NCBI GenBank assembly: GCA_964019335.1
Contig: OZ025649.1
Location: 682,001 to 746,000, forward strand
Direction of reading: 5' to 3'
DNA: 64,000 nt
Origin: Diplonema japonicum
Taxonomy: Eukaryota; Protista; Euglenozoa: Diplonemea
Part shown: positions 11,775 to 49,268 of the stretch, piece by piece
Position numbering within the stretch: position 1 is the first letter of the stretch
How the letters are laid out: the number at the start of each line of letters is the position of its first letter
Translations under genes and position numbers: made by a program
The notes under the pieces: generated by a model
The model's input: the letters and a program-made list of their open reading frames with translations, nothing else
Databases searched by the model: none
What the model was told of the DNA's origin: nothing

Positions 11775-14700
11775 ATGTTGAGCAGTTTCACAGCCATCGA
11801 GGGGTCCTCCACGGGCGGGGGTCACAGCACATGGACCGTCTCCACGCAGCGGTTGCTTGCGGTGACACATTTTGGGACAGGGATCGTGAGCTGCGTCCTG
11901 ACCGTCCTGCTCATGTTGGCTCTTGGGTGTGAAGGGCCAATTTACTGTTGGATAGTGTCGGTATTCGTGCCTTGCATGACAGCTCTTATGTGGAGTGCAT
12001 GGATTCAAAACAAGGTGCTCCAAACCGTTGTGAAGCCGCATACCACGATCACTGAATACCTCAGACAAGTGAGCAGTGAAACAGCTTGGGGATTCATAGA
12101 TGAGGTGCCTGAACTGTCCGAAGCTATGCCACAAGAGCTGCGAGAACTTACGCTCGTTGCTGATGTCTTTCGTGACAGGCTGCTTGAGCTCCTCCAGCTT
12201 GCGGTAGTCGACGGGAACCAAGGCGAGGTGGAGGAGGAAGATGAACACGACGATGCTATGGTAGGGGTCCGTCGCCAAGGCCGTGCCTGCATCTTCGAAG
12301 ACGAAAGCTTCGAAGTAGCGTCACCCCATAACCTCATCGAGTCGCAGTCGCAGTCCATATCCTTCTCGAGAGGGGAGGTGAAACCCTCTTCAGACTTACT
12401 TTGCATCTCGCCTTTAGAAGCCTCTCTGACTCTCCCTTTCGCGGCCGGGTCTGTGAAGGGGAGGACGAATGCAAAAAAGCGCAATTCGATGAGCGGCTCG
12501 TCAGGTATGATGTAAAACTGCATTCAGAAATGTTTTTTTCCCCCTTCTAGGCCTCCCACTGCGCTGCGATAGTGAGCCGTCCGCTTCCACGTGGCGTACA
12601 GGAGACTCGGCGTTCCTTGCTATCAAGGTCTACTACGAGGACGCGACCGAGGTCCCTCTGCTCCACCACGGCGTCTTCGATTCGATAAAGGAGGTAGCGC
12701 GTGCGTACGGCGCAAGGATGGAGTGGTCTGGCGGCTCAGAAGTGGCGCTATATTGGATGGGTGGTGACGACGCGTTGCTGCGAGTGGTGTCATGCTCCAA
12801 GGGTATCTCTACCATGCTGTCCACGACAAGCACCGTTGGCGGTATTAAAAAGTTCAGATGGGGAGGTGGCATCGCTACGGGCGATTCTAGATTCGGCTCT
12901 CTTCGAGTAAAGTCACGCCTCGTTCAATCCTGCGTGCTGTCTGCAGGCAAGGACGAAGCATTTGAACTTGCTCGCTTCGCTCTTGAGATCTCCGCTTCTG
13001 TGCTAATGTACGAACGCGGGCTCAACAACCTCGGCCCTAACGTGGGTGCGTCGTCAGGGCCTGCTCTTGGGAAGGAGTCCGGCATGACACCTATTGCTGA
13101 TGTTAGAGTAAGCTCTAACGGTAACACGCCTTTAAGAACCATCTGCTGTCTTGTAAATGAATCCCAAATACCAGCGCTGACTGATATATCAGCAGCTTTC
13201 AAGAGACAGGACTTCAGAGGTGCTACAGCAGTCTTAGAAGGACTTCTAGCGTTGCCTGAAAGTGAACGGGAAGGACTGCCTTTGGAGTGGTTGCGGAGAA
13301 CAGCGCACGACTTGGGGCAGGTGGCCGTGGGAGGGATGAGCATGTCCAGAGTGAGCTCCATGATACACAAAACGATGAGCATGTCGCGTGCCGCAAGCAT
13401 GATGGGCATGACAAGGACGCACACGGAGGGAAGTTTGGCCGAGCAGATCAGAGCAAGCCTCCCCGTTCAGTCTGTCTTGAAGAAACCGATGAGGGGGAGC
13501 GGGTCGCAGCTGAACTCAACTTTCGGACAATTCTCTCAGAACTCAAACGCGAGCCCCCCTGGAATGTCGAGCGACCAGGACTACGCCGCTGAGGAGGTAA
13601 ACTCCTTAGAGGAGCTGGAAGCGTCGACTGCACCTTCATCACCCGATACGGATCTCGAAAGATTTGCAGCCCTCTTCTCGAACCACATTCTGACTCATCT
13701 ACTCATAAGCACTCCAGGTGGGTGTTTCAAGAAGTCCACTCCTGAAGTCTTCACAGGATCTTCTGTGGTGAGCTGGCTTACGTCCACTTTCAGCGTGTCT
13801 GTGGATGTAGCCATAATGGTTGCAGAGATTCTGAGGTCCCGCGGGTTGTTTTATCCCTTGCAAGACAGGTGTAAGACGTTCATGAACGACTCAGCATCCT
13901 ACTACAAGTTCCGACAAGCAACCTTAGAAGTGGCCTTGGAAAAGCTGCAAGAGACTGCAATAGAGGACTGGAAGGGCGGGATGCTACAGAAGCTCGTGCG
14001 TGACATCGAAGAGGACGAGGTGTTGAAGACACTGCCCGAGAGGCGCAAGACGACAGACAGGGTACGACGCCTGACCGTAGTCTCTAGAAACAAGCTCCAA
14101 GAAGAGCAAGACAAGGAGATTGCAAGGAGGAACCTGCACAAGAACATCTGGACTGCTGCCAAGCTGCTTGCCCTGATATTTAACTGCATCAACATCCCTC
14201 TTCATGTCGGCTTTGATGTACCCTTCACACTGTACATTGCAGTCCTTCAGTGGATTGTAGACGTGGCCGTGTACTGGGTGTCTATACTCGTCACTGCACG
14301 GTTTAACCTCAACTATCTAAAGACGAAAGCGTTTTTTTTCTCTCTAATAGCGTGTTTCCCTGTGGAGTTCGTAGCTGCAATGTGGGACCCAACGTACTTG
14401 TGGCTCTCGTACTTCAGGTTGAACAGGCTACTCCACGTTACAGCCTTTGGTGAATTGTTCGCAGAGTTCGTGAGTGTGCACCTCAGATCTGTGTCTACCA
14501 TCAGGTTGCAAGCGTTGAAGTTGCTGCTGTTTTGCTTGTTTTTGCTGCATGTGGCAGCCGCCTCGATGCACTTTATCTTGTGGACGAGCAACATCGATTC
14601 CGCTGACAGCGGCGATCTGTACATGAATATACCGGACTTTCAAGGAAAGGACCTTGCAACGAGATACTTCTCCTGCCTGGACTGGGCTGTAAGGGCTATG

Positions 14701-15970
14701 TCGGGTTATGGCTGCAGATGGCCTGACACCGATGCGCAGACGCTTGTTGTCGGGGTGGTGCAGATATGCGGTGTTGCCGTCTGGGCCACTGTCATTGCCT
14801 ATGTCACGGTACTCCTCGACTCCGCCAACCCAGCACAGAAAGAGTACGAACGTCTCATCGAACAGCTGAGAATCTGTTTGCGTGAACGAAAGCTACCAGA
14901 GTCCTTCAGAAACGAAATCAATGGGTATGCACCACTGAAAGCTAACAACACCGCAACACACAGATACGTGAGGTTCCTATGGGTGACCACAAGGACGTAC
15001 CACGTGGGGCAGTACGACTTCCTCCTCAATAGCGACTCCATTAACACTTCGGGCGATGCGCTAGCATGGGGGCTCCCTTCAGAGCTGCGCTCTGCCTTTG
15101 CATACCACATGAACGAGCATGTGCTAGAGGGCATCCCGTTGCTGAAGAATGAGGCTAATGACAACTTCATTGCAGATGTTGTAAGCAAGCTGCGCCTGCG
15201 TGTGTACACACCCACGTCGGAGATCATCACACGTGGCGGGGAGGGCACTAACTTCTACATGATCATCAGGGGCAGTGTCGACATCTCACGCGATGGGCAG
15301 GCACTCGGCACCCTGTCAGAAGGGTCCTTCTTTGGGGAGCTATCGCTGCTGTATGGTGTGCCCAGCCCGTACACCATCACGGCGAGGACGTACTGCCAGC
15401 TATACGTTCTGAACCAGCAGGGTTTTGTGTGGGCAGCCGATAACTACCCGCACTGTTTGCAGGTTTGCTAAAAGAAAAGGGGGGGCGGGGGGAAAGAAAA
15501 CAACCGCAGAAAGTGTTAGAGAGCGCAGACGAAGGGTTTGCGAAGTACATTGGTGGAGTCCCAGGGGCACCACCTGTAACACGGAGGGTATGCACACACA
15601 CACACACACCACTTTATCTTTCCAGACATCGTCATTCAGTAAGAGACCTTCGCTGAGAAGACCTTCCCTGTTCATGTCGAGTGACGACTCTGTGAGCCTT
15701 GGAACCACGCTCACGAGCCATGACGGGGCAAGTAGTGTAGCACCCTCTAGCTGCTCGCCTGTTCCTGTCCCTGTGACGCGGAACCCCCTCGGACCACAGC
15801 GGCGGCCTACCTTCTGCGAGAATCTGCCTCAGTCTACTGCGTGCGTTGCGCAGTCGCAGTCGCAGTCGCAGTCGCAGTCCCAATCCCTCTCAGGACCTTT
15901 GCAGCAGACACGTGCCTCACGGGCCTCCGTCACATTCTCAGATTCGCCCTTCAAGCCGGGGCCTTTTTGA
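11775..15970 (+). CDS. Cyclic-nucleotide-regulated ion channel-like protein with N-terminal TM pair, degenerate class III cyclase-like domain and DEP domain; introns 12505-12550, 14925-14963, 15463-15509, 15588-15625
   Basis: DEP motif FTGSSVVSWL...A..VAE.L...G.F...F.ND...YYKF; S4-like YFRLNRLL; pore AMSGYG; CNBD GEGTNFYMIIRGSVDI...GSFFGELSLL. All four GT-AG introns were checked for frame. Confidence 0.8.
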
Positions 15971-19803: not shown

Positions 19804-20149
19804 TTTTTTTTTATATTTTTCCCTTTTGGGTTAGGTGTAGAAAAAGAAAAAAAAGAAAGAAGAAGAAAAAAGAGGGAGATGCGCTCTGTACTGTTTAATT
19901 CCTTTAATGGGTGTCGTTGCTTGCTTCATCCCCCATCATAACGAATTATTTTCTTCTTCCCTTCGTTAAGCAAGCGGCTTTTTTTTCTTCTTCTTCTTTT
20001 TTTTTTTTCCTATTTGTAATTCGGATCGTGCCTTTTTATTTCCCATTTTTTTTTTTTTTTTGTTGTTGTTCACCTTACCTCCTGTTTCTTCGTTATTACT
20101 GCACCTCCGTTTGTTTTTTTTAAAGAAAGAAAGTGGGGGGTGAAAGAAA

Positions 20150-22095
20150 ATGCCACCGAAGAAGAAACGGGCAGCCTCCGTGAGCAGCAGTGAGAGCAGC
20201 AGCACAGATTCGGCAGCATCCTCAGACGATACACAGTATTCAGTCTATGTGGTGGGGAATGTGAAGCTGCTATCAGGCCAAGCCGCGAGTCCTGCAGAAA
20301 TACTTGACTTCCCTACTAAAGAGGCCTCGTTCACTGAGTTGGGTGTCACAGCACGGCAGTCAGCTGGCGGGTTAAAGCACATCGTGATCCTCGCGGATGA
20401 TGGCCGTGTGTACGGCTGGGGCAGCAACAGCCACGGCCAGCTTGGGCTTGACCCCAAGAAGGTACCTTACTGCTACCAGTGGACCTTAATCAAGCAGCTC
20501 TCAAACAAGAAGGTTTCCAAGGTTTCCTGCGGTGCAAACCACACCCTTGCGCTCACCCAGCTCGGCATGGTATTCGCCTTTGGTGCGAACAACCACGGAC
20601 AGCTCGGCACCACGCTCACCAAGATCATGCGCTTCGAACCCCAGACAGTCCCCAAGGTGTGCCTCGTGAAGGACATTGCAGGCGGCGGCGACGCTTCCTA
20701 CGCAGTGGACAAGACAGGCGATCTCTTCATGTGGGGGCACAACAAGAACGGCATGTGCGGGGTGCCGGAGTTCGGGGGAACAGTAGTTGAAAAGCCCAAA
20801 AAGATACCCACCTTTGAGGAGCTAGGCAACGAGGTAGAGGCGGTGACCGCAGGCCCCTACCACGTGGTGGTCAGGTCGGGCGCGCAGATCTACACTTTCG
20901 GGTGCGGCGAGTACGGGAAGCTTGGCACAGGCGACATTTTCCCCCGCAAGGAACCCACAGAGGTCGAGGTGTCCTGGGAGAAGGGCGAGAGCGTACCTGA
21001 CATCACGTGCTCCGGCTACGCAACACTGCTCCTCTCGCACACCGAGAAAAAGAATCAAATAGTATCCACGCTGCGCGGGTTCGGGAAACTGAGCGATGCC
21101 GGCGACGAGTCCATTCTGGAGCCACGCGAGATCCAAATCCCAACAACATCAAAGATCATTAAGACTGGGGCAGCAAAAGGGTGCCAGATGCTCATGACAG
21201 AAGAAGGAGAGCTCTATTCATGGGGGGCATCCGCACAAGGGTTGTTCCAGAAGCACGTTGAGGGCAGCAAGCGGACAGTCCCTCAGAGGGTAACTATGCT
21301 GGAGGGGAAGTTCGTGTCGGACTTCGTGATGGCACAGAACTTCACAATGATCTTCGTCAACGAGGGCAAATCGGAGAAGCGGGGCGACATGAACACAATC
21401 CCCGTGGTATGCACTGACCAGCCTAGCAACAACAATACAGTTCGGGCGGTACTACCAGAACCCTGGTTTTCCTAAAAAGAAGTTCACCTATGAGACCTGC
21501 AAGAAGAGGTTCGAGCTGTCATGCGAGGCGAACAAGTTGATCGACAATTGCAGCGAGGCATCGGTATGGAAGGAAAGGAAAATAAAAGGAAAACCAACAG
21601 TACGACGGCCCGACCAGAGAGGTTGTGGGCGCGAGCAACCTAAAGCTTGGTGATGAAATATCTTTGTGGGTGCAGAATGTCTGGGCATGGGCGACCATCC
21701 GGGAGTATGGATTGACAAAAAGAAAAAAAAAGGCCCTCGCACACAGGATCCACGAAGACAATAAGTTCACCGTCGAGTGGGAGCGGAATGACTGGAAACA
21801 GAATACTGCTGACATCGATCTCGAAAGCGAAAATGAAGATGTTGACTGTGAGAGCCCTAACAGGTGGACATATGGATTTTATTCGTATTGGGTATGCGAA
21901 AAAGGGACAAAAAGTAAGGGGGAATAGGATTCCGAGAGCTCATCATCAGAGAGCACCAGCAGCGACGACGATGAAGACGATGCGAGCAGTAATGCCGAGA
22001 GCGGCAAAAGCGATGAGGAACAAGAGAAGAGTAAAGACGATGAATCCCAAGAGGAAGAAAGCTCCCCTCCCGCCAAAAAGAAAAGGGGTAACTAA
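20150..22095 (+). CDS. RCC1-repeat protein with C-terminal Tudor-like domain and acidic tail; introns 21407-21440, 21564-21600, 21705-21746, 21892-21927
   Basis: Repeated VYGWGSNSHGQLG / VFAFGANNHGQLG / IYTFGCGEYGKLG. Basic NLS-like ends PPKKKR and PAKKKRG. Introns restore one continuous frame. The Tudor-like call is tentative. Confidence 0.85.
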
Positions 22096-22434: not shown

Positions 22435-25400
22435 ATGTCTTCGAATGAGTGTTCGGTGACGGTGGCAGTGAGGGTGCGGCCCTTGAACGCGAGAGAGCTC
22501 TCCATGAAGAGCAAGGTGGTCGTGAAGCCAGAAACCACGCACGCTGCGTTGAAGCTAGAGAACGGGACCAACCCGCACAACTTTTGTTACGACCACATCT
22601 GGAACTCAATAGACCCCAAGGCCGACGACTTCGCCAGCCAGCAAACTGTTTACAACGATGTTGGCAAGAAGGTACTAGGCGCTGCCTTTCAAGGCTACAA
22701 CGCCTGCATCTTCGCCTACGGCCAGACCGGCTCTGGGAAGACCTTCTGCATGATGGGCGTTCCTGAGAACCCCGACCTCCAGGGCGTCATCCCCCGCCTT
22801 TCTAAAGCAGTCTTCGAGAAGGTCAACGCGAAGGAAGCACCTCCCAACGGCGTCTCATCTGTCTCGTACCAGATCGAAGCCTCGTATTTGGAGATCTACC
22901 AAGAACGGGTGAAGTGCCTTCTCAACCCCAAAAAGGAGAACCTCAAAGTCAGAGAGCACCCCGTCACAGGGCCGTACGTTGAGGACCTCACAAAGCTCGT
23001 CGTTTCCGACTACGCTGAAGTGCTGCGACTGATCGAGGACGGGAGCGCAGTTCGGCAGGTACGTTGAAAAGTAAATGGGGAAAGAGAAAAACACTTAGGT
23101 TGCCGCCACCAACATGAACGACACCAGCTCGCGTTCCCACGCCATCTTCACGCTCATCCTGACCCAGACCAAGGTGTATCAGGAGGGCGGCGAAGGTAAG
23201 AAGCGTGTTGCCCACGACACAGTCAGCAAGATCAATCTCGTCGACCTTGCTGGGTCCGAACGAGCGAAGTCAACCGGCGCTACTGGTACACGGCTGGCGG
23301 AAGGTGCTCAGATTAACAAGTCCCTCACTACTCTCGGCTTGGTCATCTCCGGCTTGGCCGAGATGTCAAAGAGAAAGAAAGGAGCAGCAGCTCCCCATGT
23401 CCCCTTCAGAGACTCAACCCTCACTTGGCTCTTGAAGGACAACCTTGGCGGGAACTCCAAAACATTCATGATTTCGACCATCAGTCCCGCTGAGGTGAAT
23501 CATGACGAGACTCTCTCCACACTGAGATACGCAGACCGTGCCAAGTCCATTGTGACCAAGGCAAAGGTTAATGAGGATCCCAATACTAAGCTCATCAGGC
23601 AACTGAGAGAAGAGGTATGCTGTGCTGCTGTATCCACTGTTCATCACAATCACAGCTCGCGAAGTATAAAATGAAGCTTGACGAATTTGAGAGTTCTAGC
23701 CGCCCCACATCGATCCCTACCACGATCCCAACCCTGCAGCAAGTCGAGGGCCGGTCGCTGCAGACACCGCGAGGGCTCCAGGAAGTCCCTCCAACGCCTA
23801 GGGGGGACGACGGAATGGCCACCCCGCGTGTCCCTCACGACTCACGCGAGGCAGCTATGATGAAAGAGAAGTTGGAAGCAATGGAAAAACTGATGATAGA
23901 GGCAGGCAAAACGATGGAAGAGAAGCAAGAGGCATCGATGAAGGAGGAAGTTGCTCGGCAAACTAACCTGCGGGAAATGGGCATCAAAACGGTGCATGCA
24001 GACTCAAAGCATCCACACCTTGTGAACATGATCTTGGATGGCTCGTGGATGATTCAGTTGCTCCCCCCAGACGAGGAGCTGACTGTGGGGACCGCAGAGA
24101 GCTGCGGCCTGACCCTGCATGAGGATGGTGTGTTGCCGGAGCATGCACTGGTGAAGTGCACGCAAGTCGACGAGACGTTCAAGGTGACCATCGAACCCAT
24201 GTCCGACGAGGCCGTCATCGAAGTGCACGGGGACGGTGCCATGGTGGAGCCCGACAAAGAAACAAAGCAAGTAGCCCTCACACACGGGGATACCATTGAT
24301 ATAGGCGAGAACATTTTTAAGTTTGTTGACCCCTCGATATCGGCCGACAAGCGGGCGGAAAAGCGGAAGCACCAGCTGGAACTGCTGAAAGCGAACAGAG
24401 AGAAGGACACGGCCCTGGTCCTTGCAGAACAGGTATGTTTTTTTCTGTCGCCTCCGATTTCGTAATAAATAAACTATAGGCGCAGCCCGCAATAGTGGAG
24501 CATCAGGACCCTGTCATTGATGAGGATGAGCTGCGAAAGGAAATCAGAGCTGAGATCTTAGCGGAGCATGAAAAGAAGAGACTAGAAGAAGAGGCGCGGA
24601 AGGAGAAAGAACGTGAAGAAGCGGCCAAGGTTCAAGTGCCTATCTTGAAGCTGCACGAGATAAGCAACTCTGGACCGACTGCACTGAGGCAAATAGGCAC
24701 GTCGCGTCTGCCAAAACCTGGCTCAGGGTTCCTGAAGCCTGCTGGAGGAAGTACGCAAGAAAACCCCCTATCAGCAAGAGGCCCTGCGTCTACTAAACAG
24801 GCAGCAGAGCAGGTTGTTCAGATATTCAAGCAAACGGTAGTGTTGGTAGGGGACGCAGGCGTGGGGAAGTCTTCGGTACGGAAGTGTTTGATGAAAGAGC
24901 CGTCTTTCTGGGAGAAGAAAGATCTCCCTACTGTAGCTCCGACGCTGGGCGTTGACCACGCTGAAGTGAAAGCCAATGTGCAGGGTTCGCAGGTGGTGAT
25001 CTTGATCGAGGACACTTCGGGGAGCCTATTCTATTCAACTACAATGCCCTTCTGCATCCCCAGCCAGCGCTCTGTCGTTGGTGTGGTGTGGGATCTGTCA
25101 GACCGGTTTGACGAGGAAGCGATGAAGACATATGTCCACAATGCGCGGATGCACTCGCCTGGGTCAGCAATACTGCTGATCGGGACGCACAGAGACTCTT
25201 GCAGGGAGAGCGATGACGGGATACAGAAGTTACTGAACGTTGTTGAGCAGGCGGTGCACGCGAGCTTCGTGGGGTGCAAGTTCCTCGGCACCTTTGCAGT
25301 GTCATGCAAGCACCGCACTGTGCAGCATGAGGGAAAATCGTTGAAGTTTAAAGATTTCCTGAAGCTGATCGCGCAAGCCGCGCATGAAAGGTGTCTGCAA

Positions 25401-27032
25401 GACGTGAGCTTCCCCAACGGGAATGTACCGTCATCGGTGGTCACACTAGCTAGAAAGATCATTGAAATGCGGACACAGGGCTCGTGGATGGTCACTTCTA
25501 CAGAATTCAAGGCGACCGCTTCATCTGCCGACTCGCGCTACCACTTCGACATACGTGAGCTCGGTAGGGTGACGAGCCTGCTTGACTCGTGGCGGGTGCT
25601 CCTCCACTACGGGGCGCACCCTACTCTCCGCAAGCAGGTCTTCACGGACCCCTTGTGGCTGTACGGCACCCTCAACGTCCTCAACACCTACAACCACTAC
25701 TATTCTGAGAACTCCCTCTCCTACAGCGGCACAGGTATCCACAGCAACTCTAGGACCTTCACCATCTCCGAGCTCCCGTTCGTCCCATCAGATGCCTTTG
25801 CAAAAGACCCTACCAACTCCTTCACGAGGGGCATTCTCACGCTCCCCCTTGCAATGGTGTTGTTCAAGCACCAATTGTCTCTTATCAAGAGATCTGTGAA
25901 GGAAGTGTCGCACTGCATCCAGCTGCTGATGTACTTCGACCTCCTGTACCCCATCATCCCTGCGCAGGAAGGTGAAGCCATCCTCCCGACAAACGACCTC
26001 CCCGAGCAGCGCGGACAGGAAAATGAAACACCGATCTATCTGCTTCCCTCGCTCTTCACGCACCCCTTCCCTAGCGTGCTCACAGACGTCATGCCTGCAC
26101 TCCTTAACGGCGGGCGGAAGAAGGTCGTGTTCGAGCCCACTATCCCCAACGGGCTGTTCAGCAGGCTGATGACTAGAATCGCAAGGTATGCATAAGCAAC
26201 ACAAAACAACAGCAACAGGTGTGTGAAGCGGCTGTACATCGGTAAGCTGGAGCACCTTACGCAGGACCCGTCGAAGAACATATTGTGGAAGACTGGTGGG
26301 TGGGTGCAGGACTCAGACACCTCCAGGCTGATGTTCTGGGTGAGCAAGAATGAGGTGCATCTGTGCACCAACGTCCCGTCAAGGGAGGGCCTGCCATGCA
26401 GAATGCTTATAGATGGCGTGGTGCAGTCCATCAAAAGCCTGGTGGCAGAACACCAGGGATGCAGAATAAAGGAGATGATGCCGTGCCCTGGTGGGTGCGA
26501 GGGTTGGGTCGAGGTCGTCGACGCTGCGGAAGTTAAATGCGAGAAGTGCAAAAGTGAATTTGAGAGGCGTGCTGTCCTCAATGCAGTGGGATGTCTGGGG
26601 AGGGGGAAGATGGAGGAATCGATGAGGTACTGCGAGGTAGTGTGCAAGGACGATGGAGAAAGGGTCGCGGAGTTCATGGACAAGATCGAGCAGTCAGACG
26701 TGGTAGAACCATCGCTGGAAGAGGTCAAAGAGGCAAGGGAGCTCATCCAGAGGACGCTGCCTGACTCAGAAGCACTCTCCTCTCACATCGAACATGTACA
26801 GCAGCTCCTTGCTAAGATAGACGCCTTTACCTCTGCAGGTGACACCTCTGCCGCAGGGGCCTTGGAGCGGGCCATGAATATCACCTCCACTCACAGCAAG
26901 CTCGTCTCTTCCGCACAAGCACTTGACCAGCTTCTTGAACTCCTCACCAACCCTCCACCCATCGCAGTCAGCACTAGTAGCGGGCTTGGCGGTGCAGGTG
27001 GCAAACTCGCTTCTTTCAAGCGGAACAAATGA
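22435..27032 (+). CDS. Kinesin-3-type motor fused to FHA and Roc-COR-like domains; introns 23059-23098, 23615-23655, 24433-24479, 26186-26218
   Basis: Motor motifs [58 protein letters not shown]-like PHLVN...VG...VLPEHA...[10 protein letters not shown]. GTPase motifs [24 protein letters not shown]-like [11 protein letters not shown]...VFTDPLWL. Confidence 0.88.
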
Positions 27033-31202: not shown

Positions 31203-31973
31203 CAAAGGCAAGAAGGGTTGCTGTATTCAGTAAAAGGGAGAAGGGGAAGAAAAAAAGAAAACACATCGGGAACGGGAAAACGAGAAGGAAAGAAGGAAAA
31301 AAGAAAAAGAAAAAAAAAAGAGAGAATATAGAGCTCACGCAGAAGCCAAGGAGAACAAAACCAAAAACAAACACACATAACAAAACTTCCTTCTAGCCAA
31401 TAGTCTTTTGTTGAGCTTTTTCTTCTTCTTTTTTTTTTCCAAGTAATAATATCTTTTGAAATATACCCATTTCCTCCCATTTACCATAGGCCTTTTCCCA
31501 TACCCTTCTCGTTTCCTTTCTGCACACCCAGGCTTTTTTTTTCCCCCTTTTTCTTTTTTATTGCTTTAAACGTCTTTTTTTCCTTTTATTCTTCTTCTTG
31601 GTGGTTTCTTTCTCCTCTTCCCCATTTTTTTTAAAGCACCAATAGCTTTTAGGCCCCCTTCCTTTTCTTATTCCCACCAAAGAACACCCCATGTTTTTTT
31701 TTTTTTGTTTTTCTTTTTCTTTTCCCATTCCTTTCTCCCCACTTAAAACAGAAAAAAAAGAAGTAAAAAAAAAGATTAAAAAAAAAAAAAAAAAGAAACT
31801 CCAATTCCTCCCCTTTTTTTTTTCCTTCTTTTTCTTTTCCTTGTTCTCTTCTTTAGCTTATTTTCTTTTCCTTATTTTTTTTTTTACCCCTTCTGTTTTT
31901 TCTGCTCGACACATTTCTCACCCCGTCTAAGAGGGGAGAGGGTGGGGGAAGAGAAAATAAAAATAAAGAAAAG

Positions 31974-32954
31974 ATGGACTGCAGTTTAGGCCCGCTACGA
32001 GGGGATTCTATAGCATTCAGGGCGCATGAATACAGCAGCAATAAACAACATATTTTATATGTAATTCGAGTAGAGTGGGGGGCAGGATCGCCATGGTCAG
32101 TGAAGAAGAGGTACAGCGATTTCGAGCAGCTGCACAGGCAGCTGAACGACGTCTACGGCAAGCAACAGGTACCGGAACTCCCAAGAAAGAAGAAGATCCC
32201 AATTGGAGGTATGGCGACTGGATTCGTGGACCGAAGGATGGTGAAGCTTCAAATGTACTTGAGAAACATCATAGACCAAAGCGGCATTTGGTTCAAAATG
32301 AACAGCGACACCCAAGCAGCTGCATCGCAAGGCCCGATCAGTGCGACTCTTGGGATCAATGACATAATCTTCGAATTTTTGGAATTTGCAAGCAACGCAA
32401 TTATGTCGAAGCCACAAACAGGTAAAAAGAAAATGAAAAAAAAAAAAAAAAAACCCACCACAGTGATTGAAGGAGAAGGTGTGACGGTAGTTTCGCCATC
32501 GGACCTCACAAAGCCAAACCCACAGATAAAGGTCCTCCCTATGATGTCTGGGGTTGAACTGGCTGCGTTGCAAGAGAAGCTGTCTGACGTGCCTCTCTTT
32601 GATGACGATGATAAACCTGACATTCTCAAAGCGGAGATGTCGGAGCTGCGGAGGAACGGGATGACCACCTACATCAACATCCTCCAGGCAAAGACCTTGG
32701 TCAAGGAGGCCTTTCTGTCCAACAACCGTCTCGACATCGCCCTGCACCTCGTCCCCTTGATACAAGACCCCCACAACTACCCCCAGCTGGTCGAGCTTAT
32801 TGACTTTGACGCTCAGGTTGATGAAGTCACAGGAGCCTTCTCCGAACACATAAAACGGCGCCACAGGGAGTCACTGAACGCGACCTTGGCTGACCTCCAA
32901 AGCCCCCCTGTCCCAAGGAAACGTGGGATCACCGTGACTCCAATCGATGAATAG
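31974..32954 (+). CDS. PX (phox homology) domain protein; probable in-frame intron 32422-32463
   Basis: WSVKKRYSDFEQLHRQL...VPELPRK...FVDRRMVKLQMYL...IFEFL is a PX signature. The poly-Lys stretch is a 42-nt GT-AG segment. Confidence 0.88.
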   Translation: MDCSLGPLRGDSIAFRAHEYSSNKQHILYVIRVEWGAGSPWSVKKRYSDFEQLHRQLNDVYGKQQVPELPRKKKIPIGGMATGFVDRRMVKLQMYLRNIIDQSGIWFKMNSDTQAAASQGPISATLGINDIIFEFLEFASNAIMSKPQTGKKKMKKKKKKPTTVIEGEGVTVVSPSDLTKPNPQIKVLPMMSGVELAALQEKLSDVPLFDDDDKPDILKAEMSELRRNGMTTYINILQAKTLVKEAFLSNNRLDIALHLVPLIQDPHNYPQLVELIDFDAQVDEVTGAFSEHIKRRHRESLNATLADLQSPPVPRKRGITVTPIDE

Positions 32955-37377: not shown

Positions 37378-40300
37378 ATGTCGGGGGTTACCTTAGAAAG
37401 TGTGAACCCTGCGGCTTGCACCGATATGGAGTGGCAGAATTTCAAGGAGGCGGCGTTGAAGAATGCTAGGGACCAGTCCGGGTACCTAAAGGCGCTTGCA
37501 AACGCATTGGAAATGCGGTTTTCTGGGGGCGAAAACAGCCGTATCACCGGACTTCTGCAGAGCCTTCTTGCAGACGACAAGCTAGTGAAGGCAACAACGC
37601 TGGTTTCGGTTGCAGGGAGAGTTCCCGATCCTAAGAAGGAGCTCCCAAGTGATTGCTTACAGCAAATCACAGAAGAATGTTCCCTCTCCGACAGGGCGCA
37701 AGTCTGCTTGTCCGTACTTTGCGCCTTTATCTCTCACCCTACTCTGCAGAGCATTGGTATTGCGTTCGGGAAGGCTATACTTGCTGGTAGCACTACGGAA
37801 CCATTCATCTCAAGCCTCCCTGCTGATGTCAAATACTGCATTCTGCGCCACAGCGCTGCCTTTGGACTCAGCACCGCAGCACAGCAGGCCCTGCGGGCCG
37901 AACGCCATGAATTCGTGCCTCTCTTCGAACTTGTGGGCCCCGCCGCAGGCTCTAACGACGCATTCATATGCGAAGAGCTCTTCATGAGAGCAGCCCCTAC
38001 CGCAGCTGACATCGCGGAATGCATCTCTATCATCCATACACGCAGGTGGGAACACAGGGCCTTCTGCAATCAGCTCAAAAGTGTCGTCAACGAGGGCTTC
38101 ACCTGGATTGACATCCTCCGAGCCTATTCCAGCCTTTCCCACGTTGCACAAGATGCGAAGGTGTTCCTTGCTGTGTTTCAGGAGACCATGGACAGGAAGA
38201 TGAACATCTCCATAGCGTGTGAGACTTCTGGCATCAAGCTCTCTCTACTCCTGAAGTTCTCCGCCGAGAGCATGGAGTGTGACTTTAACACGTACAGAGT
38301 GCAGGACTCAGCAGGCCTCCATGGCAATGAACCGTGGAAGTCGATCGATTACGTAGAGGCGCTCATCACCACCGTCAGCACGTCGACCGATGCGCATCAC
38401 CTGAAGGAGGCCCTCGCGAAAGGGCCAATCGCGCATTGTCCAGGGGTGCTTCTGGTGTCGCTCTGCGAGGTGGAGAACCGCCCACGCCATTTCCAGGACA
38501 TCCTCAGCAGCACGTTGTACGCAGTGCTCAAGGCATGCGACCCTCAGATCATACAAGCCATCAATTTGTCACCCGATACCATCCTCCAGGGACTAGAAGA
38601 ACTGCGCTCAAAAGAGGCAGGCTACATTTCTCTACTAGCACCTGCTGTCCCCGTTATTGTGCTACACAAGCTGCTTGAAGCCTGCCGTGCACCGACTATC
38701 TTCATTGAGCTCCTAGCAGGGAGCTTTGAAAAGGACTTCGGGGGGACGTGGGAGTGGACACGGGGTGTTCTCAACAACATGATACCAATCAGGTAGCGCA
38801 ATAACAAACAGCAACAATAAAACAACAACAGGTTAGAACAGCCGCTGATGGACGTGTTGGCCCAACTTCCGCAACATATCATTGCTAAGTTCCCCGAAGG
38901 AGTCGGGGCACCACAGGCTCCCCCGACCCCGCCGCCGCTGCCAGTGCAACCTGCGCCATTGGCGCTGCCTACCGAGGAGTGGCCTCAGAACATAGAGGAA
39001 GAGATCCAAGATTTCATGACGAAGCTGTTCAAAGAAGGTGCCGACGTAAACCAGCTGGTGTCGGTGATCAAGGGGTGGAAGGTGAACGGTCAGAATGAGT
39101 ACCACTGTCTCGTTTACTCTTTGCTCAGGGAGTTAGCTTACATTAAAGATTTCCCAACGAGAGAACTGAGGCTGATGGCTTCGCTCTTTGGGAAGCTTGT
39201 GAAGGGTGACTTGCTGCTGAATGACAAGCTGTTGCACGCATTGCAGTACGTGTTGCATGTGTTGAAGTACTCCACAAACGAGAATGAGAGGGAGTTCTGC
39301 TTTATCGCTATGAACATTTACAGGCCCAAACTGAGTTCGTGGCCCAACTACTGTGAGAAGCTGAAAGAAGTGCCGCACCTAGAACAGCTGATGCCAGGCA
39401 TTACGCTGGACATGTCGCCCGAGACGGCGAACCCTTCAGCGATCCACCAGCTGGATATCTCAACACTCACGAATAAGATGGACGAGGAGATCAACATTAT
39501 AACGCCTCCCGCGCATATTATTGAGAAGACAGGCTTCATTGTCAACAACTTGGACCTTGCTAAGATGGAGCAGTCGATCGATGATCTGAAGGAGCTGATT
39601 ACGCCCGAGTACTACCCATACTTCTCAAACTACCTTGTAAAGAAGAGGATTTCTCTGGAGCCCAACTTCCACAAGCTGTATCAAACCATGCTCGACACCA
39701 TAAAGAGTAAGGAGCTTGATAACTATGTGCTTCAGGCTTCGTATATGGCTGTAAGGACGTTGCTGTCTAGTCAAAAGATCACTACCAACTCAAGCGAGAG
39801 GTCGCTGTTGAAGAACCTGGGTGGATGGATCGGGCTGCAGACGCTTGCAAGGAATAAATCCCTGCTTGCGAGAGAGCTCAATCTCCGAGATTTGCTGATG
39901 TCAGCCATGGAGCAGGGTAAGCTCATTGCTGTTGCTCCATTTGTATCGAAGATTCTTGAACACGCCGCCAGCTCGAAGGTGTTCCGTCCTCCCAACCCGT
40001 GGCTCATGGGCATTCTTGAGGTCATGGTTGACATCCACCAGCTCCCCGACATCAAGCTCACGCTAAAGTTCGAAGTCGAGGTGCTGTGCAAGTCGCTGGA
40101 TTTGAAAATCAACGACCTCATCGATACAACAACGACAGGCAGGCGCCAGCAGCAGAGGACTAAACTCGAGGAGATGTGGTCGAAGCTCAGCCATAATAAC
40201 AACTCTGATTTCCACATGCAGGTATGTTAAATGTCCATTTACCATCGTAACTCCCTTACCCCAGACCCAGCGAGTACCCACTCCCCCACAGCAGGAGTGG

Positions 40301-43300
40301 GGCCAACAGCAGGAGCCGCAGCAGCCACCTCCGCCACAACAGCAACAACAACAGCAACAGCAGCCACCGCAGCAGCAGCTGCAGCAGCCACAATCCCCTT
40401 CTCATCAGATGAAGCCACAGGCACAGGTATTTTACATGCCCATCAAAACAACATTATAGGAATGGTACCCTCGAGCCATGCAGCAAGCTCAAGCTACGCA
40501 GCCGTACCAGAGCAACCAGGCAACCTGGGACTCACAGCATAGAGTATGTACATTTGGTGTTGCTCAAAACTTCAGCAGGAGCTGCTTCCGAAACCCAAGC
40601 CAACTGGGCTCAGCATTGTCATTCCTCAGGAGTTCCTCATGAGCCCGCATGCAGAGATCATGAAAGAGGCAGTGATGATCGGTCTGCAGGAGTCCATCAA
40701 GAACCTGCAGGTATGTCGGAAGCTCACGGCCATTCATCACAGGAGACCCAGTCCCTCCCGCAGCGTGCCTCGACTGTCGCAATCAAAGCGACTGCCGAGT
40801 TGGTGTTCAAAGACTTCATCGTCGAGTCGGACGATATGCTAGTGTGCGAGGTATGTTCAGTCTTGTAATGCACACGAAACCACAGGCCGCAGAAGGGGTC
40901 GTGACCGTGCTGGCAAACCAACTTGCAATGGTGCAAGCAAAGGTATAGAACAAGACTTAACTCAGAGAAATCGCGCACAGGGGGGCCTCACGGGAACCAT
41001 GACGCCAAAGATCATCGAGTGCCTGAAGAACGGGATGCCACCATACATACCGCAGGAGCAGTTTACAGATATCGCCAACAAGCTGACCACTGAGAATCTG
41101 CACCTTGGTGTCACGGTTATCTGTAACTCCGCTAAGGCGCTTGCTTTGGATGGCATGAAGCTTGAAATCGAGAAGCATCTCCGTGACAGGAACAACTTCA
41201 GGAGCCACGGCGGTTGGTCTGAAGGCATGAAAGCGGTTGATATCTTCAGAAGATTGATGCCCAACCCCACTCAGGTAGGCTCTCTGTTTCACATCAGCAT
41301 TTCCTTAACAGACGCAGGTTGACATAGTTTCGAAGCTGAAGGATCCTCTGTTCCCGTTCCCGATGGTATGTTGTACCCATAATCGTTAGCAACCAACAGC
41401 TGCACATGCACCGAGAGCTTTACAAGTCGTTCAGAAACTTCGAGGACAGCTGCCTTGCTGAGCTTGAGGCCGTCTTCCTTGATATCGAGCAGAACCTCGA
41501 CCTGCATTTCAAGGAGTCGCGAGAGCCACTTTCTCTCACTCAGCTAGAGTTCGGGCAGCAGAACTACACTGCACACCATGTACGGGTGAGGGACCTCGTG
41601 AAGAGCATTCCTGTTGTTTTAAAGAAGGTATGTACACTGTTAATGTCTTGCACCGTCACAGCTCTCTCTCGACGACATCTTGCGCATCGTTGCGTGGTCC
41701 TGCAAGAAAATGTTCAAGTACGCACTGGAGTCACCCCATCAGGAGATCGTTGTGTTCCTGACGGAGGTCTGTCTGTTCGTGCTTCAGGACGTCGTCAAGT
41801 CCCACCCCGAGGAGGTCAAGGCAGAGGCAACGACACAGTTCCTGAACTGCGAGAAGAGATGGTCGCTGAAGGACACCGCCAGGAACTTTATCGGCCTGAA
41901 GCTCATCGACATGACAAGGCTTGACGAGTGCCTGTCCAGGGAGCTCCGCAGTGCCAAGAACAATGTGATGGCATCCACTGTGGACTTCGTTAGGACTTTG
42001 GTGCAGAAGTGTGTCATCGACGAGAAGTTGGTGCCGCAATCCGATTTCAACCTGTCATTGAACTTCTTGCAGGAAGCCGTCAAGAAGCAGAGGGAAAGAC
42101 TTGTGGTCAGGGTGCCCTCGCTGATTGCATACCAGCCCGATGGTAAGCCGTGGAGAGACAAGGTACTATCACTGTTCAACCAGCAGCTTGTGCTGTACGT
42201 TAAAAAGTGCCAAGGGGGCGACAAGCCTCAGGAGGAGACGCAGATTCTTACAAAGCTTCAAACCGCAGGCCTTCTTCACGAAAGCAATCTGGATAAGTTC
42301 CTGTCACTGCTGGTTGAGACGAGCGTTGAACATTTTTCAACGCTGGTGTACAAAGCGGGTCCTGTCAAGTACGAGAAGCAGGTCGGAGGGAAGCTCAAGA
42401 CTGGCGGTCGCCCTGCAGCAACGCCCCCTAAGCCTCCTATCATGCTGGCAGACCAACCTGATCTGTTCAGAGGTGTTGATGCTTCCTGTGAGCTGATCTT
42501 CAGGCTGATCAAGGGCTGCTCTTGGAAAACACTGTCTGAAGACGGCACAGCTGGGTTACACCTTGTGAAGAAGGTTCTATCAGTGGTGACTGCTGTCCTT
42601 GTCAACAACCATGAGTTCCATGCAAGCCGCGGTTCAGCCGCCTGGATCAACACCATCGACAAAGAAGAACATGCGCAGCAGCAGTTCATGCAGCAACCCT
42701 ACTTCCGACTGTTCTCGAATCTTCTCGGGAACCTCAGTTACATCATACCCAAGGGCCCCAACGAGCCGGAATTGCTCAAAGCGTTCCTGAACCACATTTG
42801 TGAGATGTTAAAAATGCTGATTCCTTCAAAGGTACCAGGATTTGCCTTCGCGTGGCTCGACGTCATCGCGCACCGTGTGCTGCTCCCGAAGCTCATTCAA
42901 TACAACAGCGACGCGTACCTGCGCCTGCTGAGCGCCGCCATCGTCTATCTCTCTCCTGCTTTGAAAACAGCCGAATTCACCGAACCCCAAAGGCTGTTCT
43001 ACAAGGGGTTGCTGAAGGTGTTCATGGTGATCAACCACGACTTCCCGACGTTCCTGTACAAGTATTTCGTACCGCTGTGCACTGTTATTCCGAGGAACTG
43101 TTTCCAGTTGAGGAATGTGGTGCTGTCAGCGAAGCCGAAGGGTGTGAGGCTCCCTGAGTACTGCCTCATGTACACGAAGGACGCAAAGGATATTAATGGG
43201 TTGCCATCGCCAAAGTTGGCAAGTGAGTATGTGGAAGCATTGATGACAGAGGGCGTGCTCGAGGTGGAGACATTCGATGGGATACTGCATGGGGGCGTAA

Positions 43301-43816
43301 CGGGGAATGTGTGTGCAAAGGTTGTGGCGCAGATTATGAAAGAATCGTCAGACGGAGTTGAACCGGGGCCAGTGTACGATTTGAAGCTGATCAATGCGCT
43401 GGTGGCAAGGACAGCTACGGTTTGCACGGACAGCTCGATGTCCGCTGAGGAACGGCAGACGTGCACAAGGAACACCTTGTTGCTTGTAAGGGGGATGCTG
43501 GAACTGCTTCCTGTGGAAGGAAAGTACAATGTTGTGTCTTCGATGTGCAACCATCTGCGAGACGTAAACACCCACACCTACCACTTTGGGAACCTGCTCC
43601 TCGCTTTATTCGAAGACCAACAAGACGAGGTATGGGTTCGATTTTTCACGATTTTAAGTTTTTCGTTTTCCAGCTGCTTGTGCAAGAGCTAATTGCCTCT
43701 GTCCTGGTCGAACGAACGCTGGAACACACCACTCTCTTCTTGTGGGGTGTCCTTGGGACGCTGAGTGAACTGCTCCGAAATGAAAAGTATGGTCAAAGAA
43801 AAAAAAGAAAAAAAAG

Positions 43817-45434: not shown

Positions 45435-47264
45435 AGTTTACACTTAACTATAATTAACTCTTCTCCCTCTCTCTCCTTTCTTTTTAAATTTTAATTAAAG
45501 ATCTTTTTTTTCCATTCTCTTGTCATGTTAAAAGAAGAATGTTTACTTGATATAAATAAATGGTGTGAACCTTGACTCTCTCCCTCCCTCCCAACTTCAA
45601 GTTCACCGAAGCCTTCTCCTCACGGGTGTTCTTGTTTCTGCTTCTCTTCAGGGGTCCTCCTGCCCCACCCACCTAAACACACATGCTGTTTCTGAAGTAT
45701 TCATTCAGGATGATCAGTACGTGGTCTCAGACCAACTTAATGCCAGTTCCATTTAGGTTACCAGCAGTCCCCTCCTTCTCACTCCTTCGTGTGAAATCCG
45801 TTTTTCATTCCCCGGGCAACTCCTCCCGTGCCGCTGTACCCTTTTCGGTGTCAGTGTCAGTGTGGCTCTGCTTGCAGCTTCTTCTGACAGTAAAATAATA
45901 GACTCTGCACCCCAAGCGATTTCCTCTTGCTGCAGCGAAACCTGCTCTGGAGATTTCCCCTTCTTTCTTTTTTGTTTTACAGCTTTTCTTCTTTTTTGTC
46001 TTTTCCATATGATTATTTTGCAGGGAGATAAAAAGAAACGAGAGAAAAAGAGTAACTTGAACTGGGAGGGGAAGAAATGTACCCTCTTCTTACCCTTTGC
46101 ATACCCCTGCCGCCCTTTCTTTGAAATAAATCTCACCGAGGTCATGCTTTTGTAGCAGAAGCACAATGGCCACCCCCCTGGTGAATTAGTTGCCCGAACA
46201 GAAGAACATGGGAGTGTCAACTAACTCCAGGGGTTTTCCTTCTTCTTCTTTTAACAGAATAGAGATACTGCAACTTCTATAGGCACGTTAAAGAAAAAAG
46301 AAGATATAGCGCAATGCTGGGGGAACAACGAGGAGTTTAAAAAGAAAAGAAAAGGAATTGACGAATTATTCATTGTTTTGTGAACAACGGTTACAAACTT
46401 TTTTACCGTAGAAGAATGATTTTTGTAATGCATAACGCTGCCTTACATTCTTTTTGATAATTACAATAACATGCATCGATCCATTACCCGAGTAGCGTGC
46501 AGCATCCGGGTGCCAGATGTGCTTTCCCCATCTACTTTCATCATCTCCCTTTTCTGTGTTGCAGCTTTGCTATGACATACCCTTGCAAGGCCGGGTCTAG
46601 ATCTTTATGTGCGCGAGCAGCCTCCTTTTGTGACCCCTCCACTTATTCTCTCTTTGCCTTCCCCATCTTGTCGCGTCGCACTTCCTGCTTTCATTTCTAC
46701 AATTTTCTTCCCCCTCCCCCTTCTTTTAAAAGGGTGGCCCTCCAGGAAGGGGCTTGTCCTGCACCTTGAGTTTTTCCTCCGACATAAATCGGCATATACC
46801 TCACGGATCACATAGAGCAAGCCACGTGGTACCTTGCAAGGAATCTTTTCGTTTACACTTTTTTTTGTCTATTTTTCTTTATTTCACCTCTTCCCTACCT
46901 CATCGAGCAGTCTTTCTAAAGACCGACGTTCCAAAAAGGAAAAAGTAACACATAACATATTGCAAGCATCGCTTTCATCGGTGGGCCTCAGCACTTGAGA
47001 CACATTTAGGCGTTTAAATTCTTTTCTTCCCTTTTCTCCAAGTACCCTTTCCCGCATTCTCCTACATTAGTCCTTAAGTAGTCTCTTTTCCCCCCCCATG
47101 TGTTTTCTACAGCAGAACGAGAATAATGTAACCCTTACGCTACCAGTCTATGATAACCATTTATCTCTTTTAGGCTTTGACGCCCTACTCCTGGTGGCCT
47201 AAGGGTTATGGAAAATGGCAGGGGGAAAAGAAAGATCATTACATCACCATCAGGAGGAGGGGGG

Positions 47265-49268
47265 ATGCTGGGGACAATATGGGTGATACACACAATGTGC
47301 CTGGCCAGCGGGGTCATTGACTACCCCTTAGATGCCATGCCGAGGATGGAGCAGAGCTATGGCCAGCACGGGAGGGAGGGGGTTGTGTTGAATGACAAAG
47401 AACCCATCCGCATCAGCTGGTTTCTTCATAATTTAACGTGCACGGGAAGCGGGCGGTGTTTCTGCTCTGAGGCAGGCGACAAGGTGAATAACTTCCAAGG
47501 GACTGACTTCACGTGTAAGGAAGAAGACGTGTTGACCGCGGAGAAGGAGGAGTACCTCACGCTCATCATGGGTGAGGCAGTGGCCTTTCTCCAAAAGGCT
47601 ATGCGCGTCCACCACGTGAATGGGCCTCTCAAAGGTGCGGCCCCAATATGCGGGATTCCTATGCCATCTGACCACTCGGACGTGAGGGGGGTCATGCTCC
47701 CAGCAGACCACCTTGTCACCGGTGTCCCAGAAACGGATTTCATCGTCTACGCCACTTCGGTTCCCTCTTCTAACCAGACGCAAGCCTGGGCTCTCTCTTG
47801 CCAGCTCGACCATCGTGAACGGCCCATCGTCGCTATGATCAACTTCGTCCCCGCCCTCCTCACCCCCGCCTCCAAGGTCACCGCACCCGCCGAACATACA
47901 AACTCTGTCAACACTGCCATCCATGAGCTCTTCCACGCCCTTGGCTACTCCGTGCAGTACTACACCTCCACAAGATGGTTCCCCACCTACCCCATCAAGG
48001 AAATCAACGGCAGACACTTCTTCACCGGTTCCAAGGTCCTCGAAAAAGCAAAAGAGCACTTTAACTGCTCCGAGCTCCAAGGCCTCGAACTCGAGAACCA
48101 AGGTGGGACCGGGACCATGCTCTCTCATTGGGAAAAGAGGATCCTCGGGAACGAAGCTATGACTGGTGCGCAGACAGATGAAGTGTCGGTGATTTCCGAG
48201 ATGACCCTCGCCTACTTTGAGGACTCGGGTCTGTACAGCGTAGACTACAGCATGGCGGGGAAGCTGAGGTTCGGGAAAGACAAGGGCTGCTCGTTTGTGC
48301 AAGATCGCTGCGACAAGATTGAGCCAAGGTCTGATTTTTGCTTCCCGGAACCATCAGAGCCGTACAGGGAGCAGTGTACATCGTCGCTTCTGGCACATGG
48401 CCCGTGCATGGTGGCACAGTACAACGCCGACCTCGACCCGGAGTACCAGTACTTCAGCGACCCGAAGCGTGGAGGATATGTAACCTTTTCGGACTACTGC
48501 CCTTTCTACAGTGCGCTGACGCAATGCACGGATGAAGACACCCATGACACGTTGTGCCCGAAGTACATTACTGAGAGAGACTGCGTAGTAGTGAAGGGAT
48601 GCGTGTGGGGGACAACCTGCGTGAGCATCAAGCACGTGGTGCAGGGTGAGTCCTTTGGTGCGTCATCAAGGTGCTTCAAGTCAGATGTGGTTGCGAAGGG
48701 ATGGAAGATCAACAGTGCCAGCAGGTGTTTTGATGTGACATGTGCCGCAGACAGCGCGTCGTACTTGGTCCGCGTGGGGACACATGATGTGTACTGTGGG
48801 CAGAACAATGCAGTGGGCATCACACCGGAAGGCTTCTCAGGCGACTGGATCGGAAGCATTCCGTGTGAAGACCCTTCTTTGTTATGTGACGGGACTGTTA
48901 AGGTAGGCGAAGTGCCATCGCCGCCGCCAATGCCGGAGACCAATCCTCCCGGGAAGAACAATGAGATCGATGTGAAGGCGCTGCTTCCCGTGGTGGGTGG
49001 TGGTGTCGCAGTGGTTATAATCGCCTTTGTTCTCTATAGATGGTATGTCATAGCATAGGGACAGTTAAACACGTTACCATTAACTTACAGTGTCTGCAAG
49101 TCGAAGCAGAAAGAGCCAAAGGGTGCGATGAAGAAGAACACGCGTGAGTTTGTCATGCCGCCTGCCACTATTCAAACGCAGAAGCTAGATGACGTCGTAG
49201 TCATGGACACCATGGATGGCCAGCCACTGCAGTCTCCTCTGCTTCCTTCGGGTCAGGTTGCTTCTTAG
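47265..49268 (+). CDS. GP63: Leishmanolysin/GP63 (peptidase M8) with C-terminal TM helix and cytoplasmic tail; intron 49043-49090
   Basis: AIHELFHALG (HExxH), GLELENQGG.GT..SHWEKR...NEAM, MTLAYFEDSG.Y.VDY, FSDYCP. The start could be 47208. Confidence 0.93.

Follow-up and report, generated by a model that had tools for sequence, protein, structure and literature searches.

Does a single gene of Diplonema japonicum couple a kinesin-3 motor to a Roc-COR GTPase module, and what could such a protein do in the cell? The question was raised by the initial annotation of a 64,000-nucleotide stretch of its genome (assembly GCA_964019335.1, contig OZ025649.1, positions 682,001 to 746,000; hereafter the window, in whose coordinates all features are given), which proposed that four small GT-AG introns at 22435..27032 join five open reading frames (ORFs) in frame. 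All features of the gene lie on the + strand. In our gene model, five exons (22435-23058, 23099-23614, 23656-24432, 24480-26185 and 26219-27032) were joined over four GT-AG introns of 33-47 nt into a spliced ORF of 4437 nt, which codes for 1478 residues and contains a stop only at its end. Among the homologues of the GTPase half we recovered EukProt P0003, a transcriptome-derived protein of D. japonicum that was identical to residues 214-1478 of the model. Thus, introns 2 (23615-23655, 41 nt), 3 (24433-24479, 47 nt) and 4 (26186-26218, 33 nt, with an in-frame stop inside) are spliced as predicted, and the motor and GTPase halves reside in one mRNA. Intron 3 is the junction of the two halves, and its removal in P0003 bears out the proposal that motor and GTPase share a transcript. 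Intron 4 was also precisely skipped in a contig of run X1 that was 97-99% alike, X1 being RNA by guess only. Intron 1 (23059-23098, 40 nt) lies outside P0003 and was placed by its GT-AG ends, the reading frame and alignment of P0004, the full-length orthologue of D. ambulator, across it (84% and 92% on the two sides). Furthermore, the gene predictions P0008 and P0009 read on into an unspliced intron whose place matches that of intron 2, so that this position looks conserved among Diplonemidae. Runs X3, X4, X6 and X7 carried the locus with zero letter differences, and no intron joints were detected in X3, X4, X5, X6 or X7, as expected of DNA. The gene was the sole match in the 64-kb window, with no other kinesin-Roc-COR copy.

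Transcript forms lacking part of the protein were also observed. In transcriptome assemblies of two species, ORFs begin at a Met just after intron 1, with half of the motor gone. In the D. ambulator assemblies, one isoform shares the internal start Met of P0003 and another begins just before Roc; these short forms (P0003, P0015, P0013) may be partly spliced RNAs or genuine short isoforms. It could be argued that the fusion itself is a prediction artefact of polycistronic neighbours, a kinesin gene followed by a separately trans-spliced Roc-COR gene, for the pyrimidine tract in intron 3 could serve trans-splicing and a motor-less isoform occurs in one assembly. However, P0003 reads across intron 3, full-length fusions occur in several other transcriptomes and in trypanosome genomes, and four runs carry the locus without sequence difference. 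We regard the artefact as effectively refuted.

The motor domain (residues 6-358; 22450..23548) was recognized by Pfam PF00225 with 150 bits in exon 1 and 182 bits in exon 2, far over the cut-off. Its P-loop (GQTGSGKT, 22720-22743), switch I (23117-23140) and switch II (23243-23260) are all intact, and the lysine-rich loop 12 carries four Lys/Arg residues, although it was shorter than that of KIF1A in the alignment of P0004. When the P0004 motor, 89% identical to the window copy, was ranked against PDB structures, KIF1A scored 410, KIF13B 381 and KIF14 340 bits, followed by KIF3B with 266 and kinesin-1 with at most 233. By this ranking and by the published placement of the Trypanosoma brucei orthologue (XP_828332, also Tb11.02.0090 and Tb927.11.2490), given as 'KISc-FHA' and assigned to Kinesin-3 by phylogeny (PMC2867816 supplement, 2010), the motor is assigned to kinesin-3, closest to KIF1A and KIF13B. 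It is followed at 23570..23985 by a neck coil, a Pro/Thr-rich linker and a CC1-like helix; the coiled coil was judged by eye, and the Kinesin_assoc-like match on P0003 (PF16183, E 1.2e-5) remained under cut-off. A divergent FHA domain (residues ~500-606; 24013..24333) stands after neck and CC1, as in kinesin-3. It was marginal in the window copy (PF00498, 19.3 bits against a cut-off of 20.7) and passed in the orthologues of Papus (30 bits), T. grayi (24.7 bits) and T. brucei (23.2 bits), so that the motor-plus-FHA reading of the initial annotation stands.

The linker contains three TPR motifs at 23692-23850, and at least one TPR was present upstream of Roc in 14/14 proteins checked from clade A, the paralogue group of the window gene (see next). 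They are weak candidates for a proline-directed phosphorylation site, being frequent in low-complexity sequence. Phospho-threonine-binding FHA domains use an Arg and a Ser. An intramolecular latch between phosphorylated TPR motifs and the FHA domain was considered and set aside, as the FHA domain here lacks both residues in the alignment.

In the tail, the Roc GTPase domain (24825..25397) scored 36.2 bits with PF08477 (cut-off 27), and LRRK2 Roc was its top PDB sequence match (E 2.4e-8). All five GTPase motifs quoted earlier were present, at residues 763, 793, 817, 874 and 913: G1 at 24849-24872, G2 at 24939-24956, a divergent G3 (DTSG) at 25011-25022, G4 (GTHRD) at 25182-25196 and G5 at 25299-25310. 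For the COR region that had been proposed to follow, Pfam was divided: COR-A (25410..26057) stayed under the cut-off (PF16095, 17.7 bits against 35.3), whereas COR-B (26058..26465), interrupted by intron 4, exceeded it once spliced in P0003 (PF25497, 33.0 bits against 27). Prediction of Roc-COR from a single sequence by AlphaFold was unusable, with a predicted local distance difference test (pLDDT) of 37.8. With a 57-row alignment, the AlphaFold2 model of residues 749-1463 reached a pLDDT of 93.3 and a predicted template modelling score of 0.92. Among the Foldseek matches listed for this model, to rank 31, there were only LRRK1, LRRK2 and prokaryotic Roco structures. VIA-align superposed 455 residues on LRRK2 1329-1856 (Z 24.3, root-mean-square deviation (rmsd) 5.7) and 310 on Methanosarcina barkeri Roco2 (Z 22.5, rmsd 3.9), the best Rab reaching Z 17.0. 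As predicted by this model, the tail has a tandem Roc-COR fold, and since the structure matches Roco proteins, including LRRK1/2 and bacterial Roco at COR-A, the COR assignment was settled despite the weak COR-A score.

The Cys cluster that had been noticed earlier proved to be a four-cysteine pattern, Cx3C...Cx2C (26484..26549), at the end of COR-B and within the range aligned to LRRK2, where it is predicted to form a zinc ribbon and putatively binds zinc. It recurred in 20/29 family rows tested, including 11/11 diplonemid clade A rows and Papus A, and in 0/7 other kinetoplastid-clade A rows. Downstream of it, the AlphaFold2 secondary structure revealed a C-terminal domain of five helices and about 115 residues (26601..26951), conserved in Diplonemidae. 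An ESM Atlas search gave no usable match for this domain or for paralogue B, and Pfam found no kinase, TIR or other output domain after COR.

How widely the fusion is distributed was addressed by an unindexed search of 1.84 billion representative sequences, which returned 115 matches, 39 of them with E 1e-10 or better. The relatives that bear a name, none of them a euglenid, were D. ambulator, D. papillatum, Rhynchopus, Lacrimia, Flectonema, Sulcionema, Namystynia and Artemidia and, on the kinetoplastid side, Papus, Bodo saltans, Leptomonas and eight species of Trypanosoma, T. brucei, T. cruzi and T. vivax among them. A quick IQ-TREE analysis (LG+G4, SH-aLRT support only) covered 66 Roc-COR segments from the family and 18 further Rocos, isoforms, duplicates and short fragments having been removed, and separated the family from the outgroup Rocos with support 100. 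It resolved clade A (34 rows, support 99), to which the window gene belongs, and a second clade (32 rows, support 99) made up of B (26 rows) and a small subclade C (6 rows); the motor tree recovered the same groups. Because A and B each contain diplonemids, Papus and Bodo, the A/B duplication predates the diplonemid-kinetoplastid split, and the trees show, at the level of sequence, vertical inheritance as two ancient paralogues since the common ancestor of both groups. The initial annotation was right about the architecture; it missed the diplonemid and kinetoplastid span of the family, paralogue B with its canonical switch II and the helical domain of about 115 residues. Paralogue B (P0034, P0148, P0156, P0030) has the order kinesin-FHA-Roc-COR with DFAGQ and was found in D. 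ambulator, D. papillatum, Namystynia, Papus and Bodo. Its 18 matches included no trypanosomatid name, although a word-based search of this kind is no proof of loss. In addition, P0058, a motor-FHA-Roc sequence that ends within Roc and has the G3 DMSGQ, fits neither clade A nor B well and may come from an earlier-branching lineage.

A motor was present in 28/34 A rows, 11/26 B rows and 0/6 C rows. When the count was limited to rows in which Roc begins after residue 600, the figures were 27/27 for A and 11/13 for B; most of the other rows are short and probably partial. The members of subclade C (P0040, P0160, P0061, P0039, P0041, P0042; a Namystynia member is named) consist of Roc-COR with canonical motifs and are possibly a motor-less third paralogue or fragments. 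These motor-less relatives form a sister subclade, one D. ambulator isoform begins just before Roc, and the conserved helical domain sits at the place of output domains in other Rocos. All three would suit a motor that merely delivers a signalling GTPase, with Roc-COR and the helical domain as an effector module taken to the flagellar pocket, cytostome or endosome and the motor unregulated by it. However, the lack of a Pfam output domain after COR and the co-inheritance of motor and tail in both paralogues argue against such a delivery, which we consider very improbable.

Whether the Roc domain can act as a switch is a different matter. Motifs were scored in the 32/34 A rows and 25/26 B rows that cover the domain. 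G1 was kept in all rows, including 32/32 A rows, the G2 Thr in 31/32 A rows, and G4 T[HY]xD in 24/32 A rows and 25/25 B rows. The difference lies in G3: DFAGQ was present in 24/25 B rows and DFxGQ in 8/8 outgroup Rocos, and a Gln or Arg after DxxG in 0/32 A rows, 24/25 B rows and 8/8 outgroup Rocos. Among diplonemid A rows, 10/11 had DxxG without Gln or Arg (DTSGS in the window copy) and 0/11 had either residue, and in kinetoplastid-clade A rows the G3 Asp was replaced by Glu (ExxG) in 18/21. In switch II, the window copy is thus, judging from these motifs, the drifting paralogue. These changes would be expected if the Roc of paralogue A were a pseudo-GTPase, with Roc-COR serving as a fixed cargo adaptor or dimer scaffold without a nucleotide cycle and only paralogue B switching. 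On the other hand, G1, G2 and G4 are conserved across A, the window copy retains the G3 Asp and Gly, and LRRK2, which has an Arg after DxxG in the alignment, nevertheless hydrolyses GTP (PMC6337361). Since LRRK2 has Arg at that position, the drift does not prove inactivity, and we consider a pseudo-GTPase unlikely, if well worth keeping in mind. In the clade A copy, whose switch II departs from the Roco DFxGQ, the working GTPase/dimerisation switch proposed in the initial annotation is, because of this drift, a candidate. Clade A Roc probably still binds nucleotide and, given the drifted switch II, probably has a slower or different cycle, with paralogue B as the better candidate for a full one.

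Kinesin-3 motors are switched on by dimerisation on cargo and show processive plus-end motility. The Roc-COR tail occupies the place of the PH, PX or CAP-Gly cargo domains of other kinesin-3s and may be the cargo-binding and regulatory end. In Roco proteins, Roc-COR dimerises via COR-B, and the monomer-dimer cycle follows the nucleotide state, involving COR-B and switch II (PMC6337361). Taken together, the dimerisation-dependent activation of kinesin-3 and the Roco cycle imply that nucleotide-dependent pairing of the Roc-COR tails would let a single chain switch its own motility on and off. For the T. brucei orthologue Tb927.11.2490, the C-terminal tag was recorded in TrypTag as 'endocytic, cytoplasm [points, weak]' (PMC9981465 supplement). 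The product of the gene is one continuous motor-FHA-Roc-COR chain of the kinesin-3 type. In the reading that we favour, with about an even chance, it moves endocytic organelles towards microtubule plus ends, and its Roc-COR tail attaches to cargo membranes and controls when the motor becomes active. The fusion transcript P0003, the congruent motor and Roc-COR trees, the Roco fold, the retention of G1, G2 and G4 and the T. brucei 'endocytic' annotation support it.

Several observations speak against this carrier. The endocytic localisation is weak and was recorded for a distant orthologue (43 identities among 189 aligned residues of Roc), and with the N-terminal tag the signal was fainter than parental, background only (PMC9981465 supplement). 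In an RNA interference screen, Tb927.11.2490 showed a mild drop at 24 h, from 93 to 70 transcripts per million (PMC9464253 supplement). Switch II is altered throughout clade A, although it is described as the most conserved region of Roco proteins (PMC6337361). Motor-truncated and motor-less forms are also present in the transcriptome assemblies.

The tail could alternatively provide a second microtubule-binding site, as Roc does in LRRK2, so that the protein would be a tethered or cross-linking motor organising microtubule arrays, e.g. those of the feeding apparatus, instead of carrying vesicles. The loop that follows G1 has two lysines in register with the KTKK patch of LRRK2, whose K1358 and K1359 are required for microtubule binding (PMC9758056), and the majority of diplonemid A rows, as of B rows, keep an aromatic-plus-basic motif at this place. 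However, the same loop also has acidic residues, the segment matching the second LRRK2 patch (KRKR) had a net charge of at most +1 in 11/11 diplonemid A rows, and the annotation for the orthologue in trypanosomes is endocytic, not cytoskeletal. Such a cross-linker thus appears improbable to us.

The trypanosome orthologues have been known by motor-based names and screen rows only, their database label being kinesin. In the available part of the 1624-kinesin architecture table, no Roc, COR or Miro labels were present, and Leishmania major LmjF33.2560 was listed as Kinesin-3 (PMC2867816 supplement). The T. brucei gene was given, in the accessible portions of two reports, solely as a KIF1/UNC-104 BLAST match (PMC7002101, PMC3008729), and the parts available of PMC13615690 and bioRxiv 10.64898/2026.05.12.724483 deal with other kinesins. 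No published description of a kinesin-Roc-COR fusion was found in the full-text literature, a search whose coverage excluded subscription journals and preprint supplements; within that range, the suggestion that the architecture has no characterised precedent was borne out. Automatic Pfam tables already flag Roc on diplonemid proteins, so databases already reveal the fusion, which the literature search did not turn up. The architecture, built from two known modules, kinesin-3 and Roco, is real, conserved and apparently undescribed.

As for the genomic surroundings, 21/22 stop-to-stop ORFs of at least 300 residues in the window (1-64000) lie on the + strand, as expected for a directional gene cluster in Euglenozoa. 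An RCC1-repeat protein (20144-21475) is encoded directly upstream of the kinesin gene. Further away are a 986-residue ORF with a DEP-like match under cut-off and a cyclic-nucleotide-binding domain (12511-15471), a PX-domain protein (31857-32954), pieces of CCR4-NOT subunit 1 (38821-43692) and a leishmanolysin-family (M8) peptidase (47181-49058). The RCC1, PX, CCR4-NOT and M8 neighbours have no evident link to the kinesin gene.

The conversion of the Roc-COR nucleotide state into an output is a long-standing question in the field of LRRK2, the Parkinson's protein. Tentatively, and with more doubt than for the carrier itself, we propose a fourth kind of Roco: a motor with its own LRRK2-type GTP switch, in which tail pairing controls processive movement without a separate Rab or Arl adaptor, which arose and duplicated before the diplonemid-kinetoplastid split and has gone unrecognised in the trypanosomes of sleeping sickness and Chagas disease. 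If this is true, the monomer-dimer cycle of Rocos, which is disputed, could be read directly from motility. In a single-molecule assay, the movement of a natural chain of motor and Roc-COR could reveal this cycle, and a divergent and a canonical switch II can be compared in the natural A/B pair. The fusion would also provide kinesin-3 with a further type of cargo domain; it brings Roco proteins to Euglenozoa and gives a new annotation to a conserved trypanosome kinesin whose reported localisation is endocytic.

Compared with known kinesin-3s (KIF1A/UNC-104, KIF13B, KIF16B, KIF14), the protein shares the N-terminal motor, neck coil, CC1-like segment, FHA and basic loop 12. It differs in its divergent FHA and in its tail of Roc, COR, four-cysteine cluster and helical domain, whereas PH, PX and CAP-Gly tails are given in the first 30 of 144 Kinesin-3 rows (PMC2867816 supplement). 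With the Rocos LRRK1, LRRK2, DAPK1 and those of Chlorobium tepidum and Methanosarcina, it shares Roc directly followed by COR-A and COR-B, the THxD-type G4 and the structural match over the whole module. It differs from them in having a motor in front, DTSGS instead of DFxGQ in switch II and no LRR, kinase or death domain; none flanking Roc-COR was matched by Pfam in 8/8 Diplonemidae-type proteins. Of the three Roco groups described (LRR-Roc-COR, the same plus kinase, and the DAPK1 type), none has a motor, the word 'kinesin' being absent from the available text (PMC6337361). Since it has no LRR, kinase or death domain, the protein fits none of these topologies. In relation to the LRRK2-type microtubule-binding Roc (basic patches 1356-1359 and 1383-1386), the first patch is partly matched in the sequence and the second is not basic. 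The closest known proteins are Tb927.11.2490 and the 'Unc104-like kinesin' of Bodo, Leptomonas and other trypanosomes, which both trees identify as orthologues with the same domain order, but with the G3 Asp replaced by Glu, the four-Cys pattern unmatched and Roc-COR under the Pfam cut-off.

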